This document shows positions 2,711-18,168 of a stretch of DNA of 30,250 nt, piece after piece (positions within the stretch are counted from its first letter, which is position 1; every line of letters starts with the position of its first letter). The DNA is from a virus (lineage: Duplodnaviria > Heunggongvirae > Uroviricota > Caudoviricetes): the IMG/VR virus record IMGVR_UViG_2740892422_000005. One strand, given 5' to 3'. The translations under genes were made by a program, and so were the position numbers. The notes beneath the pieces are model-generated. The model had not been told where the DNA came from and did not search any database. It was given only the letters and a program-made list of their open reading frames with translations.

Positions 2711-3096
2711 ATTCTGAACCCTAAAAAAAGAAACACGGACACTGATAATGCCCGTGTGGCAATGCCATGTAAGTTAGCGATGAATATGGCGCAAAAAAAA
2801 GCGCGGCCGTCGGATTAACGCCGCGGGACAAAGTCCATGAAGACTCATAAGTATTGGCCCCCTTCTGGGGACATGTTCATACTACTAAGCTTCAGAAGTG
2901 GTTTAAATCATCAAATTAACCTTAATTTTCGATAAGTCTTATTTCATTTCTTTGCGCCACATCTGGCGCGCATCAAATAACGCCACGCAAAGGGCATCTG
3001 CGGATGCCGGTGCTTTTGACGGGGTGTTTTTTACGGGCCGCTGGTGGCCATTTTTTGTTTCCATTACACAGCGCCCGCATCTGCGAGGTGGGGGTT

Positions 3097-3312
3097 ATGA
3101 AATCCATGGATAAGTTAACAACGGGTGTCGCCTATGGCACCTCCGCAGGCAGTGCTGGCTACTGGTTTTTACAGTTGCTCGATAGAGTAACTCCGTCACA
3201 GTGGGCTGCAATCGGTGTGCTGGGTAGTCTGGTTTTTGGCCTGCTGACGTACCTGACAAACCTTTATTTCAAGATTAAAGAAGATAAGCGCAAGGCTGCG
3301 AGAGGTGAATAA
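3097..3312 (+). CDS. S: Class II holin, phage-21 S-type pinholin (71 aa) with dual-start motif
   Basis: [29 protein letters not shown]... starts with the M1-K-S-M4 dual start, has two TM segments and a charged C-terminus. RBS GAGGTGGGGG upstream. The ORF-track start at 3004 is an upstream extension. Confidence 0.85.
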
Positions 3313-3809
3313 TGCCTCCATCATTACGAAAAGCCGTTGCTGCTGCTATTGGTGGCGGAGCAATTGCTATAGCATCGGTGTTAATCACTGGCCCAAGTGG
3401 TAACGATGGTCTGGAAGGTGTCAGCTACATACCATACAAAGATATTGTTGGTGTATGGACTGTATGTCACGGGCATACAGGAAAAGACATCATGCTCGGT
3501 AAAACGTATACCAAAGCAGAATGCAAAGCACTCTTGAATAAAGACCTTGCCACTGTCGCCAGACAAATTAACCCGTACATCAAAGTCGATATACCGGAAA
3601 CAATGCGCGGCGCTCTTTACTCATTCGTTTACAACGTGGGTGCTGGCAATTTCAGAACATCGACGCTTCTTCGCAAAATAAACCAGGGCGATATCAAAGG
3701 CGCATGTGATCAGCTACGTCGCTGGACATATGCTGGCGGTAAGCAATGGAAAGGTCTCATGACTCGTCGTGAGATTGAGCGTGAAATCTGTTTGTGGGGT
3801 CAGCAATGA
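3312..3809 (+). CDS. R: SAR endolysin (lysozyme with N-terminal signal-anchor-release segment, 165 aa)
   Basis: Hydrophobic Gly/Ala-rich N-terminus [20 protein letters not shown] followed by an E...D...T catalytic arrangement (LEG, KDI, WTV), like phage 21 R. Start overlaps the holin stop (TAATG). Confidence 0.85.
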
Positions 3810-4270
3810 ACAGAGTAACCGCGATTATCTCCGCTCTGGTTATCTGCATCATCGTCTGCCTGTCATGGGCTGTTAATCATTACCGTGATAACGCCATTAC
3901 CTACAAAGCCCAGCGCGACAAAAATGCCAGAGAACTGAAGCTGGCGAACGCGGCAATTACTGACATGCAGATGCGTCAGCGTGATGTTGCTGCGCTCGAT
4001 GCAAAATACACGAAGGAGTTAGCTGATGCGAAAGCTGAAAATGATGCTCTGCGTGATGATGTTGCCGCTGGTCGTCGTCGGTTGCACATCAAAGCAGTCT
4101 GTCAGTCAGTGCGTGAAGCCACCACCGCCTCCGGCGTGGATAATGCAGCCTCCCCCCGACTGGCAGACACCGCTGAACGGGATTATTTCACCCTCCGGGA
4201 ACGACTGGTAATAATGCAGGCCCAACTTGAAGGTGCTCAGCAATACATAACCGAGCAGTGTTTAAAGTAA
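3806..4270 (+). CDS. Rz: Rz inner-membrane spanin (i-spanin)
   Basis: ATG 3806 overlaps the endolysin stop. N-terminal TM helix then a coiled-coil periplasmic domain. An embedded +1-frame lipoprotein gene is present. Confidence 0.8.
4026..4211 (+). CDS. Rz1: Rz1 outer-membrane lipoprotein spanin (o-spanin), embedded in Rz
   Basis: 61-aa ORF wholly inside Rz in another frame. Signal peptide with lipobox VVVGC and a proline-rich mature part (PPPPPAW...PPP). RBS GAAGGAG lies 7 nt upstream. Confidence 0.75.
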
Positions 4271-4384: not shown

Positions 4385-4390
4385 TATAAT
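4385..4390 (+). promoter_or_regulatory. Candidate -10 hexamer TATAAT upstream of trkG (second TATAAT at 4357-4362)
   Basis: Two perfect TATAAT hexamers in the AT-rich spacer between Rz and trkG. No clear -35. Confidence 0.25.
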
Positions 4391-4407
4391 TGAAAGAATA
4401 TTTAGAT

Positions 4408-5865
4408 ATGAATACATCTCATGTAAGAGTTGTTACTCATATGTGTGGGTTCTTGGTTTGGCTTTATAGTCTTTCAATGTTGCCACCAATGGTTGTAGCA
4501 TTGTTTTATAAAGAAAAAAGCCTGTTCGTTTTCTTTATAACTTTCGTTATATTTTTTTGCATTGGTGGCGGAGCGTGGTATACAACTAAGAAATCTGGCA
4601 TTCAATTACGTACCCGTGATGGGTTTATTATAATTGTAATGTTTTGGATTTTGTTTTCTGTTATTAGTGCATTCCCTTTATGGATTGACTCAGAACTTAA
4701 TTTAACGTTCATTGATGCTCTGTTTGAAGGGGTTTCTGGAATAACAACAACAGGAGCAACTGTAATTGATGATGTTAGTTCATTACCTCGGGCATATTTG
4801 TACTATCGGTCACAGTTAAATTTTATAGGTGGTTTAGGAGTTATTGTTCTGGCGGTTGCAGTATTGCCATTATTGGGTATTGGTGGTGCAAAGCTTTATC
4901 AGTCAGAAATGCCGGGGCCATTTAAGGATGACAAACTCACTCCCCGCCTGGCCGATACGTCACGGACACTGTGGATAACTTATTCTTTATTAGGTATTGC
5001 TTGTATTGTCTGTTATAGACTTGCAGGAATGCCTTTGTTTGATGCTATTTGTCACGGGATTTCCACAGTTTCGCTTGGTGGTTTCTCAACTCATAGCGAG
5101 AGTATCGGATATTTTAATAACTATTTGGTTGAGCTGGTGGCTGGTTCTTTTTCCCTGCTATCGGCTTTCAACTTCACTCTTTGGTATATTGTTATTAGCA
5201 GAAAAACGATAAAACCTTTAATCAGAGATATTGAACTTCGTTTCTTTCTGTTAATAGCCTTAGGGGTGATCATTGTTACCTCTTTCCAGGTCTGGCATAT
5301 AGGTATGTATGACTTGCATGGAAGTTTTATTCATTCGTTTTTTCTTGCCAGCTCCATGCTCACTGATAATGGTTTAGCTACGCAGGATTATGCAAACTGG
5401 CCCACGCACACGATAGTGTTTTTGCTGTTGTCAAGTTTCTTTGGGGGATGTATAGGTTCAACCTGTGGTGGAATTAAGTCACTTCGATTTCTTATACTTT
5501 TCAAACAAAGCAAACACGAGATAAATCAGCTTTCTCATCCCAGAGCGTTGTTGAGTGTAAATGTAGGAGGGAAGATAGTTACAGATCGTGTAATGAGGTC
5601 TGTATGGAGTTTCTTTTTTCTTTATACTCTCTTCACGGTGTTTTTTATACTGGTGTTAAATGGTATGGGATATGATTTTCTTACATCATTTGCAACAGTG
5701 GCTGCATGTATTAATAATATGGGATTAGGTTTTGGGGCTACTGCATCGTCATTCGGAGTGCTTAATGACATTGCAAAGTATTTAATGTGCATAGCTATGA
5801 TTCTTGGTCGCCTTGAAATTTATCCTGTTATTATATTGTTTTCAGGTTTTTTTTGGCGCTCCTAA
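4408..5865 (+). CDS. trkG: TrkG/TrkH-family potassium uptake membrane protein (485 aa)
   Basis: Polytopic membrane protein with repeated selectivity-filter-like Gly motifs (GVSGITTTGATV, SLGGFSTHS, GLGFGATA). Matches, from memory, the Rac-prophage TrkG starting MNTSHVRVVTH, so the ATG at 4408 is preferred over the TTG at 4390. Strongly AT-rich compared with flanking phage genes. Confidence 0.9.
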   Translation: MNTSHVRVVTHMCGFLVWLYSLSMLPPMVVALFYKEKSLFVFFITFVIFFCIGGGAWYTTKKSGIQLRTRDGFIIIVMFWILFSVISAFPLWIDSELNLTFIDALFEGVSGITTTGATVIDDVSSLPRAYLYYRSQLNFIGGLGVIVLAVAVLPLLGIGGAKLYQSEMPGPFKDDKLTPRLADTSRTLWITYSLLGIACIVCYRLAGMPLFDAICHGISTVSLGGFSTHSESIGYFNNYLVELVAGSFSLLSAFNFTLWYIVISRKTIKPLIRDIELRFFLLIALGVIIVTSFQVWHIGMYDLHGSFIHSFFLASSMLTDNGLATQDYANWPTHTIVFLLLSSFFGGCIGSTCGGIKSLRFLILFKQSKHEINQLSHPRALLSVNVGGKIVTDRVMRSVWSFFFLYTLFTVFFILVLNGMGYDFLTSFATVAACINNMGLGFGATASSFGVLNDIAKYLMCIAMILGRLEIYPVIILFSGFFWRS

Positions 5866-6002
5866 TATATGGCTGATTTATAATTGTGAGTTTAATATTA
5901 TGTTGACTCACTCATTGATCCAATACCTAACTTTACCAGCAACACCTCCGCCCCCAGTAGCACTGGCTGCTGGGGTGCGTTTTATTCATAAAGCAAGGCT
6001 GT

Positions 6003-6794
6003 ATGAGCGAGAAATTAAAGATAGTCTATCGCCCATTACAAGAATTGTCACCGTATGCGCACAACGCCAGGACGCACAGCCCTGAGCAGGTGGCACAACT
6101 GGTAGAAAGTATTAAGCAATTCGGCTGGACTAATCCGGTGCTGATTGACGAAAAGGGCGAAATTATTGCGGGTCACGGTCGTGTTATGGCGGCTGAAATG
6201 CTCAAAATGGATTCTGTTCCGGTCATTGTTCTGTCTGGCCTGACGGATGAGCAGAAAAAGGCGTACCGCCTGGCAGATAATCGCCTGCCGATGAATGCTG
6301 GCTGGGATGAAGATCTGTTGCGGATGGAGCTGTCGGACCTAATCAATGCTGATTTTGATGTCTCCCTGACAGGCTTCATCCCGACAGAAATTGATGAACT
6401 GTTGACGGATGTTTTGCCCGGTACAGGAAATGAGGAGGAGCCGTATACGACGAAAATTGATACGCCTGTTTATGAGCCGTCGGGCGGTAAACCGGATATC
6501 AGTGAACTGTACGACGATACGAAAACTCAGGAGCTGATCAGCCGGATACGTTCGGCGTCCCTTGAGCCTGATATTGAGAAATTCCTCCTGTGTGCGGCAG
6601 AACGTCACACGGTGTTTAATTTCAGCAGAATTGCGGACTATTACGCTCACGCCCCCGCTGAAATTCAGTGTTTTTTCGAGGAGTCGGCGCTGGTGATCAT
6701 TGATTATCAGCAGGCTATTGAAAATGGATTTGTCCGGATGACGCAGCGCATGGTGGAGATCATGCATGGTGGTGAGGAGGAGGAATATGCGTGA
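6003..6794 (+). CDS. ParB-like nuclease-domain (ParB/sulfiredoxin fold) protein with acidic C-terminus (263 aa)
   Basis: N-terminal motif IIAGHGRVMAA and surrounding sequence are typical of the ParB N-terminal domain. C-terminus ends GGEEEEYA. The N-terminus resembles the Rac ynaK fragment as I recall it. Confidence 0.7.
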   Translation: MSEKLKIVYRPLQELSPYAHNARTHSPEQVAQLVESIKQFGWTNPVLIDEKGEIIAGHGRVMAAEMLKMDSVPVIVLSGLTDEQKKAYRLADNRLPMNAGWDEDLLRMELSDLINADFDVSLTGFIPTEIDELLTDVLPGTGNEEEPYTTKIDTPVYEPSGGKPDISELYDDTKTQELISRIRSASLEPDIEKFLLCAAERHTVFNFSRIADYYAHAPAEIQCFFEESALVIIDYQQAIENGFVRMTQRMVEIMHGGEEEEYA

Positions 6795-7719
6795 TGATTT
6801 TTGCGCCTTTATTCTGACTCACGGGCGACCAGACAAAGTTCTGACTTACCGGACGTTGCGTCGTGCTGGCTATACCGGGAAAATTTTTATCGTTGTTGAT
6901 GATGAAGATAAGACACGGCATCAGTACATGGCTGAATTTGGTGAACAGGTGCTGGTGTTTTCCAAAGCCGATATCGCCAGTCGTTTTGACGAAGCCGATA
7001 ATTTCTGTGACCGCCGCTCAATTTTTTACGCCCGTAATGCCTGTTTTGACCTGGCAAAACTGGTCGGGTGTAAATACTTCATTCAGCTCGATGATGATTA
7101 TCACGAGTTCCAGTTTCGGGTGGATCGCAACTATGACCAGGCCTATTTTCCGATAAGGAAACTGGATGCGATCCTTTCTGAAATGCTGGCGTACTACGAA
7201 TCAATACCTGCTCTTTCCATCGCTATGTCGCAGGGCGGGGATTTTCTTGGTGACAATGGCGGCCATGCTTCGTGGGTGAAACGCAAGGCAATGAACAGCT
7301 TTATCTGTTCGGTTGATCGACCGTTCTCATTCATGGGGCGCATTAACGAGGATGTGAATACGTACACGAATCTCGGTCGCTGTGGTGAATTGTTTATGAC
7401 GATCGGTGCTGTCCAGTTAGGGCAGAAACAGACGCAGAAAAACAGCGGCGGAATGACCGAGCTGTATCTGGATTCCGGAACCTACGTTAAAAGTTTTTAC
7501 TCCGTCATGTATGCGCCGTCGTGCGTAAAAATTTCACTGATGGGTGCCAGCCATAAACGCATTCACCATCAGGTCACCTGGAACAACGCTGCAGTAAAAA
7601 TCCTTCACGAAAAATACAGGAAGAAGACACCCTGCATATCAATGGGGGTGACAAATGATTCCGTATTCGAAAGTCGAGTCTCTGGCAGCGTGCCGGATGA
7701 CTGCACAACAAATCGCTGA
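6787..7719 (+). CDS. GT-A-fold glycosyltransferase-like protein with DxD motif (310 aa from ATG 6787)
   Basis: Start ATG 6787 follows RBS GGAGGAGGA and overlaps the ParB-like stop. Has FILTHGRPDK (strand 1), IVVDDEDK and QLDDDY (DxD) in GT-A order. No TM segments. Substrate unknown. Confidence 0.5.
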   Translation: MRDDFCAFILTHGRPDKVLTYRTLRRAGYTGKIFIVVDDEDKTRHQYMAEFGEQVLVFSKADIASRFDEADNFCDRRSIFYARNACFDLAKLVGCKYFIQLDDDYHEFQFRVDRNYDQAYFPIRKLDAILSEMLAYYESIPALSIAMSQGGDFLGDNGGHASWVKRKAMNSFICSVDRPFSFMGRINEDVNTYTNLGRCGELFMTIGAVQLGQKQTQKNSGGMTELYLDSGTYVKSFYSVMYAPSCVKISLMGASHKRIHHQVTWNNAAVKILHEKYRKKTPCISMGVTNDSVFESRVSGSVPDDCTTNR

Positions 7720-7906
7720 CGTTCTGGATGTTGATCTGAACCGACTGAAAGAAAATCGGGAAGCAATGACAGATTTTTATGCGGCCATCCGTAAGGGCAG
7801 AGCGAAAGGTGAAGCCGAGTTACGAGCGGCATTGTTTAAGCTTGCCAGAAAAGGGGATGCCTTTGCTCTGCGCGAACTACTCAGGGTGGATAAAAATCAG
7901 GACTAA
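7655..7906 (+). CDS. Small phage protein (83 aa), possible HTH DNA-binding, packaging-associated
   Basis: ATG 7655 follows RBS GGGGGTG. Overlaps the 3' end of the GT-A-like gene by 65 nt in another frame. Basic and helical (AAIRKGRAKGEAELRAALFKLARKG). Lies just upstream of the terminase genes. Confidence 0.4.
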   Translation: MIPYSKVESLAACRMTAQQIADVLDVDLNRLKENREAMTDFYAAIRKGRAKGEAELRAALFKLARKGDAFALRELLRVDKNQD

Positions 7907-7909
7907 CTG

Positions 7910-9004
7910 ATGAGCAGACCGGACTGGGGGGCGTTGCAGCAGGAGTATATTGCTGAATACACCCGCTCCGGTATATCTCCGGTGGCATGGTGTGAAGCAA
8001 GGGGACTGAATTACGCAACAGCCCGTCGTTACATCAAAAAAACTCCGAAAAATGCGCAGACAGAAATGCGCAAAACTGCGCAAAAAAGTGCGCAGAAAAA
8101 ATCTGCGCAGACTGCACAAAAGCGGAACGAAAAATCTCAGGAAAAAAAGCCAGTATTCGATGCGGGCCTGAATGAGGGCGACGCGGAGGAATTTTCGTTC
8201 TGTCCCGATGAATTCGGCATTTCTGACCAGCAGGCTAAGTTTGCGATGCTTGTTGCTCAGGGTAAAAAGCCGACAGAGGCGTACCGACTAGCCGGTTATG
8301 AGGGGCAAGGTGCGACAGCTAACAGCAACGCCAGTCGTATGCTTAGAAATGCCAGGGTTTTTCGCGCTATCAGCTACTTCCGCAATCAGTACCAGAAACG
8401 CTATACCGCAGACCTGGATTTACTAGTGAGTCAGTTGATGGCCATTGTCCTGGCCGACCCCAATCAACTTGCACAATTTCGCCGTGTTAACTGCCGTTAT
8501 TGCTGGGGCGAGAATCATCTCTACCAGTGGCGCGATATAGCAGAATTCGACAAGGCAGCGGCGCAGGCTTCCAGAGATGGCAAACCCGAACCGGAATATG
8601 GAGGCCTCGGCTTTGTTGATAACGCCATACCCAATCCGGACTGCCCGAAGTGCTGCGGTGAGGGAACGGGACAGCTTTATATGGCTGATACCACTCTGCT
8701 TGATGGGGATGCGCGGCAATTATATGCAGGGGCAAAATTCGGAAAATTCGGCGTTGAGATCCTGCTGGAGGATAAGGCTGCCGCCCGGCGTGAATTGTTG
8801 CGTTTGCTTTCTGCTGGCGGGGCTTTATGTGCAGATAAGCGGCTACAGGAACTGGAAATTGAACGGCGCAGAATGGAAAACCAGAAGCTGCGCAAAGAGA
8901 TCGAAACGGTGGAAGATAATGAACATCCCCAGCCCGTGGCGATCAAAATTAATGTGGTTGATGCCAGAGTAAGGAGTGATGAAGATGATCTCTCCGACGC
9001 TTAA
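7910..9004 (+). CDS. Putative terminase small subunit (N-terminal HTH, low-complexity AQK linker, C-terminal Cys4 zinc ribbon; 364 aa)
   Basis: Sits immediately upstream of and overlapping the large terminase. N-terminus GISPVAWCEARGLNYATARRYIKK is HTH-like. C-terminus has CRYC...CPKCC. A lysine-rich linker is encoded by the TGCGCA repeat array. Confidence 0.55.
   Translation: MSRPDWGALQQEYIAEYTRSGISPVAWCEARGLNYATARRYIKKTPKNAQTEMRKTAQKSAQKKSAQTAQKRNEKSQEKKPVFDAGLNEGDAEEFSFCPDEFGISDQQAKFAMLVAQGKKPTEAYRLAGYEGQGATANSNASRMLRNARVFRAISYFRNQYQKRYTADLDLLVSQLMAIVLADPNQLAQFRRVNCRYCWGENHLYQWRDIAEFDKAAAQASRDGKPEPEYGGLGFVDNAIPNPDCPKCCGEGTGQLYMADTTLLDGDARQLYAGAKFGKFGVEILLEDKAAARRELLRLLSAGGALCADKRLQELEIERRRMENQKLRKEIETVEDNEHPQPVAIKINVVDARVRSDEDDLSDA
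8053..8118 (+). repeat. Array of five perfect palindromic hexamers TGCGCA plus one TGCACA variant, spaced 10-15 bp, inside the putative small-terminase gene
   Basis: TGCGCA at 8053, 8067, 8077, 8089 and 8104; TGCACA at 8113. Extended consensus about AAAnTGCGCA(G/A)A. Candidate pac site by analogy to the P1 pac hexamer repeats in pacA. Confidence 0.4.
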
Positions 9005-10286
9005 TGTGCCTCAGGCGCGATTTCTTTCAATGCCCCATAAATTTAAAGCCTATATTGCTGGTTTTGGCTCGGGCAAAACATGGGTTGGGTGTGGCGGCAT
9101 ATGCAAGGGGATTTGGGAGCATCCAGGTATAAATCAGGGATATTTTGCGCCAACGTATCCCCAAATTCGCGATATTTTTTACCCTACAGTGGAAGAAGTT
9201 GCTGCTGACTGGGGATTGAACGTAAAAATTAATGAGGGAAATAAAGAGGTTCACTTTTATTACGGACGCCAGTATCGGGGAACCACTATCTGCAGATCGA
9301 TGGAGAAGCCACAAACGATCGTCGGTTTCAAAATTGGTAATGCGTTGGTGGATGAACTGGACATTTTGCCGAAGGAAAAAGCCAGAACGGCGTGGCGCAA
9401 GATAATTGCACGTATGCGTTATAAGATTGATGGACTTCGCAACGGTATTGACGTTACAACCACGCCGGAAGGATTCAAATTTGTCTACGAGCAGTTTGTT
9501 AAAGCCGTGCGTGAAAAAACAGAGCTGGCCTCACTGTATGGTCTGGTGCAGGCATCTACTTTCGATAATGAAAAGAACCTGCCAGCAGATTACATTCCTT
9601 CGCTTCTTGAATCATACCCTCCAGAGCTGATTAAAGCCTATCTTCGAGGACAGTTTACTAACCTGACAAGTGGTACTGTTTACCATCAGTTTGACCGGAA
9701 ACTGAATAATTGCGAAGAAGTGGAGCAGCCAGGGGAGCCGATTTATATTGGGATGGATTTTAACGTTGGAAAGATGGCGGGAATCGTCCATGTGCTGCGT
9801 TTGGGGCTTCCATGTGCGGTAACTGAAATCATCAATGCCTACGATACGCCGGATATGATCCGCATCATTAAAGAACGCTTCTGGCTGTATGATGGGAATG
9901 ATTACCGGAAAGTGAGGGAAATTTATATTTATCCAGATGCTTCCGGGGATTCCAGAAAATCAAGTAACGCAAGTACGACGGATATAGCCCAGCTTAAGCA
10001 GGCTGGTTTTAACGTTGTGGTGAACAGCTCGAACCCGCCAGTAAAAGATCGCGTTAACTCAATGAATGCAATGTTCTGCAATGCCAATGGTGAGCGTCGC
10101 TATAAAGTTAATGTGAAGCGTTGCCCGTTATATGCCGAATCTCTGGAGCAACAGGTCTGGGATGAGAAGGGGGAGCCTGATAAAAAATCTGGCAATGATC
10201 ACCCGAATGATGCCGGAGGTTATTTCATCGTTAAGCAATTCCCTATTGTCAAACCGACCGGAAGAGTCACATCACTTCGGATTTAA
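8985..10286 (+). CDS. Terminase large subunit (ATPase/nuclease)
   Basis: Walker A-like AYIAGFGSGKT near the N-terminus and acidic nuclease-type motifs toward the C-terminus. ATG 8985 lies 8 nt after RBS AAGGAG; the ORF-track start at 8976 is a GTG inside the RBS. Confidence 0.85.
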   Translation: MISPTLNVPQARFLSMPHKFKAYIAGFGSGKTWVGCGGICKGIWEHPGINQGYFAPTYPQIRDIFYPTVEEVAADWGLNVKINEGNKEVHFYYGRQYRGTTICRSMEKPQTIVGFKIGNALVDELDILPKEKARTAWRKIIARMRYKIDGLRNGIDVTTTPEGFKFVYEQFVKAVREKTELASLYGLVQASTFDNEKNLPADYIPSLLESYPPELIKAYLRGQFTNLTSGTVYHQFDRKLNNCEEVEQPGEPIYIGMDFNVGKMAGIVHVLRLGLPCAVTEIINAYDTPDMIRIIKERFWLYDGNDYRKVREIYIYPDASGDSRKSSNASTTDIAQLKQAGFNVVVNSSNPPVKDRVNSMNAMFCNANGERRYKVNVKRCPLYAESLEQQVWDEKGEPDKKSGNDHPNDAGGYFIVKQFPIVKPTGRVTSLRI

Positions 10287-17706: not shown

Positions 17707-18168
17707 ATGAGGTTATGGATGTTTATTCTTAATCAGAAAATTATCATCAGTGGAGAACGCTGGTTTACGCCAATGAAGGACTTAAAACCTGTAGACGGGT
17801 TAAAACTGTTGGTGGCAAGCAGCGATAACGATCAGTATCGCTCCCGTAATGCATTAATCCGTCGCCACATTGAGAAAATGGATGCCAGTTTGCACGTCGG
17901 AACGAAGGAGTTTGATATTTCAAAGGTTTCCGAGGTGGATTCTGTTGATGATTTACTCATTGATAATGCGGCTCGTTATCTGCTGAAAGACTGGAAAGGG
18001 GTTGGTGAACTGGTTGATGGTGTTGAGGTTGTACTGGAATATACGCCAGAACGAGGGATCGCGCTGCTTAAGCAGAATCCAGAGTTGTACTGGCAGCTCC
18101 TTGCAGAAGCAGCTAGCATCGCCCAGGGAAAAGAGCAGCAGAAGCAGGATACGATAAAAAAGCCATAG
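17707..18168 (+). CDS. Tail assembly chaperone (G-like)
   Basis: ATG 17707 lies 8 nt after GGGGGA. Acidic 153-aa protein ending ...DTIKKP* with a slippery heptamer at its 3' end. Confidence 0.65.
   Translation: MRLWMFILNQKIIISGERWFTPMKDLKPVDGLKLLVASSDNDQYRSRNALIRRHIEKMDASLHVGTKEFDISKVSEVDSVDDLLIDNAARYLLKDWKGVGELVDGVEVVLEYTPERGIALLKQNPELYWQLLAEAASIAQGKEQQKQDTIKKP

Follow-up and report, generated by a model that had tools for sequence, protein, structure and literature searches.

Two coupled genes between lysis and packaging

The 30,250-nucleotide (nt) stretch analysed here (IMG/VR record IMGVR_UViG_2740892422_000005; hereafter the window) is the late region of a Rac-type lambdoid prophage of Escherichia coli. 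It runs from the Q-region genes through holin, lysozyme and Rz (3004-4270), trkG and two overlapping genes to a small helix-turn-helix (HTH) open reading frame (ORF), the small (TerS) and large (TerL) terminase subunits, and the portal, head and tail genes. The two overlapping genes are the subject of this study: ORF1 (6003-6794) encodes a protein that we call the adaptor, or partner, and ORF2 (6787-7719) encodes a glycosyltransferase, here the transferase; these, like their protein segments, the small HTH ORF and the terminase genes located below, lie on the forward (+) strand. On balance, the pair appears to constitute a clamp- or ParB-tethered DNA glycosyltransferase that acts late.

The adaptor stop and the transferase start overlap by 8 nt (ATGCGTGA), within a coupling junction (6774-6794) that comprises the Shine-Dalgarno sequence GAGGAGGAGG (6774-6783), the transferase ATG (6787-6789) and the adaptor TGA (6792-6794). 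The start at ATG 6787 is preferred: it is the same in RefSeq, and homologues open with MRDDFCAF. Other phages show a start-on-stop overlap too, in 103 of their 105 non-redundant adjacent pairs (11 nt in 42, 8 nt in 35), far beyond chance. The coordinates, the overlap and the translational coupling on which the original prediction was built are all borne out.

ORF2 (310 residues, soluble, mildly basic) is classed, from its sequence and predicted fold, as a GT-A glycosyltransferase of the TAGT family, a family that includes the T2/T6 enzyme adding a second glucose to glucosyl-hydroxymethylcytosine in DNA. It matches Pfam TAGT (PF20691, TET-associated glycosyltransferase) with 122.3 bits against a cut-off of 27.5, residues 8-222 aligning with profile positions 4-205 of 205, and PHROG 842 with E=6e-104; its best structural matches among viral proteins (BFVD) are likewise TAGT-domain phage proteins (E=7e-24). 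The recognisable motifs are R14, D102-D103-D104 (in QLDDDY, the DxD motif), N187-E-D-V-N191, T216-Q..G-G-M-T224 and R258-I-H-H261, and all invariant residues are intact. R14, D102-D104 and E188-D189 correspond to the R...DDD...ED active-site motifs of phage GT-A DNA glycosyltransferases and of the trypanosome base-J glucosyltransferase (bioRxiv 10.1101/2023.12.21.572611). A UDP-sugar is indicated as the probable donor by the DxD motif together with the epimerase genes that neighbour some relatives. Neither protein contains a membrane segment (maximum Kyte-Doolittle hydropathy over 19 residues 1.25 for the adaptor and 1.08 for the transferase), the transferase has no Pfam match to Glycos_transf_2 or GtrA, and its neighbours are the adaptor and terminase genes; the earlier proposal of a soluble GT-A enzyme unlike the GtrB-type serotype converters is thereby upheld. 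No NCBIfam model matched either protein above its cut-off, PADLOC returned no defence-system match for the transferase, and the RefSeq names of the latter are ‘GREB1-related protein’ or ‘hypothetical protein’.

The adaptor (263 residues, net charge about -25; PHROG 620, E=1e-90) is labelled ‘ParB/Srx family N-terminal domain-containing protein’ in RefSeq, and its intact gene is called ynaK. Residues 1-135 (6003-6407) form a ParB/Srx domain of the nucleoside triphosphate (NTP)-binding type with a NAR box (N21), GHGR (57-60) and ADN (91-93). This domain scores 28.9 bits against Pfam ParB_N (PF02195; cut-off 26.3), and its top Foldseek matches are ParB-CDP (6sdk), Myxococcus xanthus ParB, Noc, PadC and KorB (E ~3e-6), with sulfiredoxin also found. 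The domain assignment, the GHGR motif and the acidic tail (HGGEEEEYA) had all been recognised before, and the structure search that had been suggested as a test now places the N-domain with ParB and the transferase with TAGT. In a profile search of the PDB, IIAGHGR of the adaptor aligned with IIAGERR of Noc, the catalytic Glu of GERR being His here. Canonical partition ParB (TIGR00180) is matched over the N-domain only and at 38.4 bits, below its cut-off of 58.45; Pfam detects neither an HTH nor ParB_C in the adaptor, and the prophage annotation contains no ParA. The matches to phrog_498 ‘DNA methyltransferase’ (E=1e-50) and PADLOC MTase_II (E=2.5e-38) both cover the ParB domain only, and therefore identify it as the subtype that is fused to phage N6/N4 DNA methyltransferases. 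Among 103 non-redundant partners, N21, G57 and N93 are the most conserved positions (99-100%), with R60 conserved in at least 80%; the first three fall in the putative NTP pocket, and nucleotide binding is predicted.

The N-domain is followed by a linker (residues 137-169) that is predicted to be disordered (AlphaFold predicted local distance difference test score (pLDDT) ~29) and carries the motif E-E-P-Y148-T-T-K-I-D-T-P155-V-Y157-E-P-S (6435-6482). Across 117 non-redundant cores, stand-alone partners included, Y148 and Y157 are conserved in 100% and P155 in 99%, with position 149 being threonine in 79%, serine in 18% and asparagine in 2%. The motif may serve to dock the transferase; alternatively, it is a candidate acceptor. 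Next comes an acidic, all-helical C-terminal core (approximately residues 161-255; 6483-6767), with the sequence FLLxAAERHTVFNF..IADYYAH..ESALVIIDY..AIENGF, for which neither a Pfam match nor a sequence match to PDB structures was found. The hallmark of the core across the family is a run of acidic residues, then Y148-[TS]-x-K-[IV]-x-x-P155-x-Y157-E-P, then FL..AA.RH..F.[YF]..IA[DE]YYAH...Q.L.E.SALVI[IL]D..AI..G[YF].

The invariant partner and its two N-terminal forms

Related loci (~300) were collected from viral contigs with profiles of the transferase or of the adaptor core, taking the best 80 per query in scans of at most 600 stretches; their ORFs were called mechanically and scored with hidden Markov models built in this analysis. 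Where at least 1 kb of sequence precedes the transferase (101 non-redundant loci), the adaptor core is present without exception: fused to a ParB domain directly upstream in 78, as a stand-alone protein of 125-150 residues directly upstream in 11, within a single ORF in 1, and nearby in the other 11, usually with a second TAGT paralogue or a radical-SAM gene in between. Conversely, a transferase lies in the locus for 155 of 155 non-redundant adaptor clusters. Co-occurrence of the pair across prophages, proposed earlier as a test, thus holds in both directions. The transferase’s invariant partner is the C-terminal core of the adaptor with its linker motif, not the ParB domain, a point missed by the original prediction, as was the fact that the family had already been named. 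As far as sequence comparison goes, the core family is sharply bounded: it comprises 1179 clusters at 50% identity among 1.84 billion representatives, 1002 of them below E=1e-10, and the core is always C-terminal. One locus (L105:6287-7855) carries a 522-residue ORF that joins ParB domain, core and transferase; this may be a natural fusion, or it may have arisen as an artefact of sequencing.

Although the core is constant, what precedes it is not. ParB-fused adaptors (107) stand at the head of packaging operons, whereas 35 of the 155 non-redundant adaptors lack a ParB domain, have a 9-39-residue extension instead, and are encoded among genes for primase, DnaB, RecA, clamp loader and PolA. A DnaN-like sliding-clamp gene accompanies 20 of these 35 short adaptors and none of the 107 ParB forms (Fisher p=3e-15, with the sequences being related and the counts therefore not independent). 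The short extensions themselves contain an [LM]F dipeptide in 27 of 35 cases, against 6.0 +/- 2.1 in composition-preserving shuffles (again of related, non-independent sequences), typically within peptides such as QFSLF, QQDLF, KQLF or INLFG and usually with Asp or Gly as the following residue. The bacterial beta-clamp-binding motif is QL[SD]LF; from this resemblance, and from the neighbourhood, the short adaptors are predicted to bind the clamp. Both N-terminal modules point to a ring travelling on DNA.

The order partner-then-transferase, in most cases with the terminase immediately downstream, is shared by phages that infect Proteobacteria, Firmicutes, Actinobacteria, Bacteroidota and haloarchaea. 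Lactobacillus gasseri phage phi jlb1, L. delbrueckii phage c5, Nocardia phage NTR1 and a Porphyromonas phage all carry the overlapping pair directly upstream of the terminase, in c5 immediately after the cos site; in the archaeal virus HHTV-2, eight small ORFs and a distance of ~2.9 kb separate the overlapping pair from the annotated large terminase subunit downstream. The transferases of these five viruses are 27-48% identical to the E. coli protein, and in small complete phages without a hydroxylase the pair persists at 38-48% identity with its start-stop overlap kept. Phages Ld17 and Ld25A, from the same L. delbrueckii set as c5, harbour degraded copies of the module. A literature search on DNA modification in halovirus HHTV-2 found nothing. 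Over both adaptor forms, a Terminase_3 TerL follows in 65 of 121 non-redundant loci and an HTH or TerS-like gene of 125 residues follows the transferase in 61 of 121; the terminases beside the module are of unrelated types (Terminase_3, Terminase_6 and two other large-subunit clusters). The pair had been assigned to a moron slot, which does not agree with these observations: across phyla and in archaea the two genes open the packaging operon as a conserved module, and the idea of the pair as a moron was rejected on the grounds of this conserved position. The moron here is trkG (4390-5865), between Rz and the adaptor gene.

Downstream of trkG, at 5952-5975 and 28 nt 5' of the adaptor start, lies a strong terminator-like hairpin (10-bp stem, 7 GC pairs); with this hairpin between trkG and the adaptor, late transcription would need Q antitermination to reach the pair. 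On the other side, the transferase is followed by the small HTH protein (7697-7906), a RefSeq coding sequence of 69 residues from ATG 7697 or 83 from ATG 7655, with a TerS-like DNA-binding fold (PHROG 309 ‘terminase small subunit’, E=8e-23), and then, directly 3' of the module, by the terminase genes (7910-10286; TerS 7910-9004, TerL 8976-10286; Pfam Terminase_2, Terminase_6N and Terminase_6C). This phage therefore has two TerS-like genes, the small HTH protein (7655/7697-7906) and the 364-residue TerS. The C-terminal tail of the transferase extends ~25 residues beyond most homologues and overlaps the small HTH ORF by 23-65 nt. Within TerS, at 8035-8096, at least three copies of AAAAxTGCGCARA are spaced by 12 or 24 nt and encode a low-complexity KKTPKNAQTEMRKTAQKSAQKKSAQTAQK stretch of the protein; they could be a pac-type recognition array or a mere peptide repeat. 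A search for parS-like repeats around the module returned only short, weak ones.

The module is common in E. coli, with matches in 1580 of 5426 complete genomes, 889 of which (~1 in 6 of all complete genomes) cover at least 80% of the query. Many of its copies have decayed in various ways, by IS3 insertion, by truncation at differing points or by fusion to capsid or tail genes, and in strain HH194M the prophage that carries the module is degraded and occupies the lambda attachment region (ybhC-ybhB), not the Rac site. Strain K-12 (MG1655, locus L238) keeps only window 5901-6256 of the locus, annotated as ynaK, before jumping to window 17817. This 11.6-kb deletion in the Rac prophage breaks off the adaptor gene at codon ~85 and connects it to a tail-region ORF (17707-18168) near the latter’s middle. 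Both ynaK and ydaY had been taken for fragments of the locus in K-12; the former is indeed the stump of the adaptor, but the latter is the 3' part of the tail-region ORF and not a transferase remnant.

Proposed mechanism, acceptor and rival explanations

In the mechanism that we propose, the transferase would be the catalytic subunit, a DxD-type GT-A enzyme using a sugar nucleotide, and would be active only with the adaptor, whose linker motif and acidic core would dock or activate it. The N-terminal module of the adaptor would hold the complex on DNA by way of a sliding ring, which would be the ParB-type, NTP-gated domain in the window and the beta clamp in the replisome-adjacent relatives. 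On the late transcript, which depends on Q, the pair would lie downstream of the lysis genes and trkG and ahead of the terminase; from this position, replicated phage DNA would be marked shortly before or during packaging, and the mark may plausibly let the phage escape host nucleases. In relatives with tandem transferases, an epimerase or other sugar-nucleotide enzymes, longer or different glycans would be built on the same acceptor. We infer DNA as the acceptor, the tethering to a clamp, the timing and the anti-nuclease role from these lines of evidence taken together.

The known TAGT-type and other phage DNA glycosyltransferases act on 5-hydroxymethylcytosine (5hmC), 5-hydroxymethyluracil (5hmU) or sugars already attached to them (PMC13216743; bioRxiv 10.1101/2023.12.21.572611). 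Two published surveys describe transferases without the matching enzymes: solitary TAGT homologues of undefined function occur in 288 of 753 transferase-encoding phage genomes (PMC13216743), and ~65% of phage glycosyltransferase contigs have no 5mYOX or thymidylate-synthase neighbour (bioRxiv 10.1101/2023.12.21.572611).

Several observations weigh against a tethered DNA glycosyltransferase. Neither the full annotation of the Rac-like prophage nor the complete 31.8-kb genome of phage c5 contains a dioxygenase (TET/JBP), a hydroxymethylase of the thymidylate-synthase type or a C5-methylase. Tet_JBP and Thymidylat_synt are also absent from the recurrent families, those with at least 2 or 3 members, that were listed in Pfam scans of 298 neighbour proteins, 149 from around 121 non-redundant loci and 149 from around the stand-alone type, all within +/-7 kb or less, a span beyond which a base-modifying gene is possible in large phages. 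To our knowledge, all well-characterised phage DNA glycosylation begins at a hydroxylated pyrimidine, and we know of no GT-A enzyme that glycosylates canonical DNA. The adaptor has no DNA-binding domain recognisable by Pfam scan and is acidic in all three of its segments (isoelectric points 4.1-4.7; ~4.8 for both domains, against a median of 8.7 for the transferase), and its two invariant tyrosines in a disordered acidic linker would suit a protein acceptor too. The AlphaFold models are weak both for the adaptor core (pLDDT 40-79) and for the C-terminal half of the transferase. Finally, the clamp-binding reading of the [LM]F peptide concerns relatives and not the ParB-bearing adaptor of the window.

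A hidden dioxygenase was considered and rejected, on the basis of the full annotation for this prophage and of the c5 genome for the small phages. Given that there is no TET/5mYOX enzyme or hydroxymethylase, neither 5hmC nor 5hmU could serve as the acceptor in this phage. A realistic though less probable proposal is a hitherto undescribed modification in which the sugar is put directly on canonical DNA, at an exocyclic amine, a ring or carbonyl position, a phosphate or a DNA end, without hydroxymethylation and with delivery by the ParB-type or the beta clamp.

The genes that recur beside the module in other phages encode a UDP-sugar 4-epimerase, radical-SAM/SPASM proteins, a CofD-like transferase with a MobA-like nucleotidyltransferase, and tandem TAGT paralogues; sugar-handling neighbours of this kind are typical of glycan building on a fixed acceptor. 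Several loci (L152:4794-10218, L156:5731-7849, L131, L096 and L171) have 2-5 TAGT paralogues in tandem behind a single adaptor, the number reaching five in a phage contig of 115 kb; this suggests that an oligosaccharide is built stepwise. Locus L153 (2398-6140) has a 572-residue CofD-like protein (2-phospho-L-lactate transferase family) and a MobA-like NTP-transferase between a stand-alone adaptor and its transferase, hinting at a phospho-linked or otherwise unusual activated donor. Of 121 non-redundant loci, 8 (including L131:7851-8807 and L177:936-1904) encode a radical-SAM/SPASM enzyme that either directly adjoins the transferase or separates it from the adaptor; this enzyme could alter the sugar or prepare the acceptor.

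The main rival explanation makes the adaptor itself the acceptor, or primer, in the manner of glycogenin: a sugar would be placed on Tyr148 or Tyr157 (or Thr149) and extended by the tandem transferases, and the acidic adaptor, once glycosylated, would work on DNA or at the clamp, for instance as a nuclease decoy or packaging factor. It draws on the invariant tyrosines in a disordered acidic loop and on the pattern of one adaptor with many transferases. We consider it unlikely nonetheless, because the characterised members of TAGT act on DNA-linked groups (PMC13216743; bioRxiv 10.1101/2023.12.21.572611), the ParB subtype is that of the DNA methyltransferase fusions, position 149 is not always a hydroxyl residue, and the alternation of ParB domain and clamp peptide is more simply understood as delivery of an enzyme to DNA. 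An orphaned transferase of conventional type, idle or decaying here, whose 5hmC, 5hmU or glucosyl-hmC substrate is made elsewhere or has been lost, seems quite improbable. The Pfam family does take its name from an association with TET, phage 5mYOX genes have genes for glycosyltransferases, ParB and terminase beside them more often than any others (PMC13229309), and many E. coli copies are truncated; against this stand the intact invariant residues, the conservation of the pair in small complete phages without a hydroxylase, the lack of Tet_JBP or Thymidylat_synt among the recurrent families listed for the neighbour proteins, and the fact that the subfamily always has an adaptor of its own, whereas the T4-like homologue does not.

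The gene order just 5' of TerS and TerL in most loci, and directly after cos in c5, could also be explained by a packaging-associated, ParB-like nuclease to which the transferase is a modifying accessory, and which aids cleavage at cos or pac much as HNH proteins assist some terminases; ‘ParB-like partition nuclease’ is indeed the PHROG label of some relatives. Such a nuclease was among the functions entertained in the original prediction. It is very improbable, with about a quarter of the partners (35 of 155) having no ParB domain and lying in replication clusters, with the invariant element being the non-ParB core and the transferase, with the module accompanying unrelated terminases, and with the degraded copies in Ld17 and Ld25A showing that the module is dispensable for packaging; phage DNA modification, another of those candidates, is the one favoured by the evidence. 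Least probable of all, and remote, is a transferase for lysogenic conversion or otherwise directed at the host, acting on a surface polymer, a nucleotide signal or RNA. The adjoining trkG moron would fit it, as would the structural resemblance of phage GT-A enzymes to prophage transferases of the TarP type (bioRxiv 10.1101/2023.12.21.572611), but the enzyme is soluble, has no membrane segment and is encoded among the late lytic genes, with lysis genes on one side and terminase genes on the other; its linkage to a ParB- or clamp-type adaptor is near-absolute, and virulent phages and an archaeal virus, whose envelopes are unrelated, have conserved it.

If the tethered transferase does act on DNA, it represents a new route to DNA glycosylation, possibly with new chemistry, and adds to the thymine dioxygenases that depend on ParB a second system in which ParB-like proteins serve as delivery or activation subunits; the alternation of ParB domain and clamp peptide gives the idea of a delivery subunit a concrete mechanistic form. 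If an adaptor tyrosine is the acceptor, the product would be a new kind of phage glycoprotein. The locus was already named at the family level (Pfam TAGT; RefSeq ‘GREB1-related protein’). What is new is an unannotated adaptor core as an obligate partner, the fusion of this core to a methyltransferase-type ParB domain or a putative clamp-type peptide according to genomic context, and a whole subfamily without the enzyme that normally makes the acceptor. The system bears on phage escape from restriction and on unexplained long-read signals in prophage-derived DNA, and its presence in ordinary E. coli prophages makes it readily testable.

Comparison with known systems

The closest known relatives of the transferase are the beta-glucosyl-HMC alpha-glucosyltransferase of T2/T6 and its T4-like homologues, which share its Pfam family, GT-A fold and R/DDD/NED/TQ..GG/HH motifs; the TAGT homologue of the T4-like Aeromonas phage 65 aligns over the entire catalytic domain (E=3e-18). 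However, the T2/T6-type enzymes are only ~22-24% identical to the transferase described here, and that of phage 65 has a 110-residue N-terminal extension of its own and no adaptor or ParB gene within 3 kb. The T2/T6 enzyme moreover acts on glucosyl-hmC that is supplied by the dCMP-hydroxymethylase pathway, which is absent from the annotation of this prophage. The GT-A enzymes associated with 5mYOX/TET in phages, and the base-J glucosyltransferase, also have the GT-A fold and the R...DDD...ED motifs (bioRxiv 10.1101/2023.12.21.572611). The former are, in addition, phage-encoded, post-replicative, often near ParB and terminase genes and sometimes accompanied by tandem transferases and epimerases. 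By contrast, they use 5hmC or 5hmU from a neighbouring dioxygenase, in place of which, with none nearby, a dedicated adaptor core is found here.

For the adaptor, ParB176 (PNAS 2026, PMC13229309) offers a precedent. ParB-like proteins without a DNA-binding domain are required for phage thymine dioxygenases to act on double-stranded DNA, and the dioxygenase is predicted to dock between the ParB N-domain and the C-domain (PMC13229309); targeting by ParB is an idea of Iyer et al. 2013, as relayed in PMC8256090 and PMC13229309. ParB176 has an N-terminal ParB domain, a dispensable middle, a required C-domain and no DNA-binding domain, and is encoded beside a DNA-modifying enzyme near the terminase, a layout that the adaptor resembles. 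It differs in that its partner is a dioxygenase rather than a glycosyltransferase and in that the adaptor core also occurs without ParB; the two C-domains are likened by architecture only. The phage fusions of ParB with N6/N4 DNA methyltransferases (PHROG 498, MTase_II; PMC12704722) resemble the adaptor in ParB subtype, enrichment in prophages and proximity to packaging genes. In these, the enzyme is fused to ParB and transfers a methyl group, whereas here a separate, translationally coupled protein would dock through the adaptor core and transfer a sugar.

The short adaptors, in turn, have a precedent in the T4 alpha-glucosyltransferase, which co-purifies with the gp45 clamp (PMC13216743) and thus provides a DNA glycosyltransferase with a sliding clamp at the replisome, matching the stand-alone variants with their putative clamp-type peptide and adjacent phage clamp gene. 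The T4 enzyme has a GT-B fold and binds the clamp itself, whereas in the systems described here the link would go through the adaptor, and in the window through its ParB domain.

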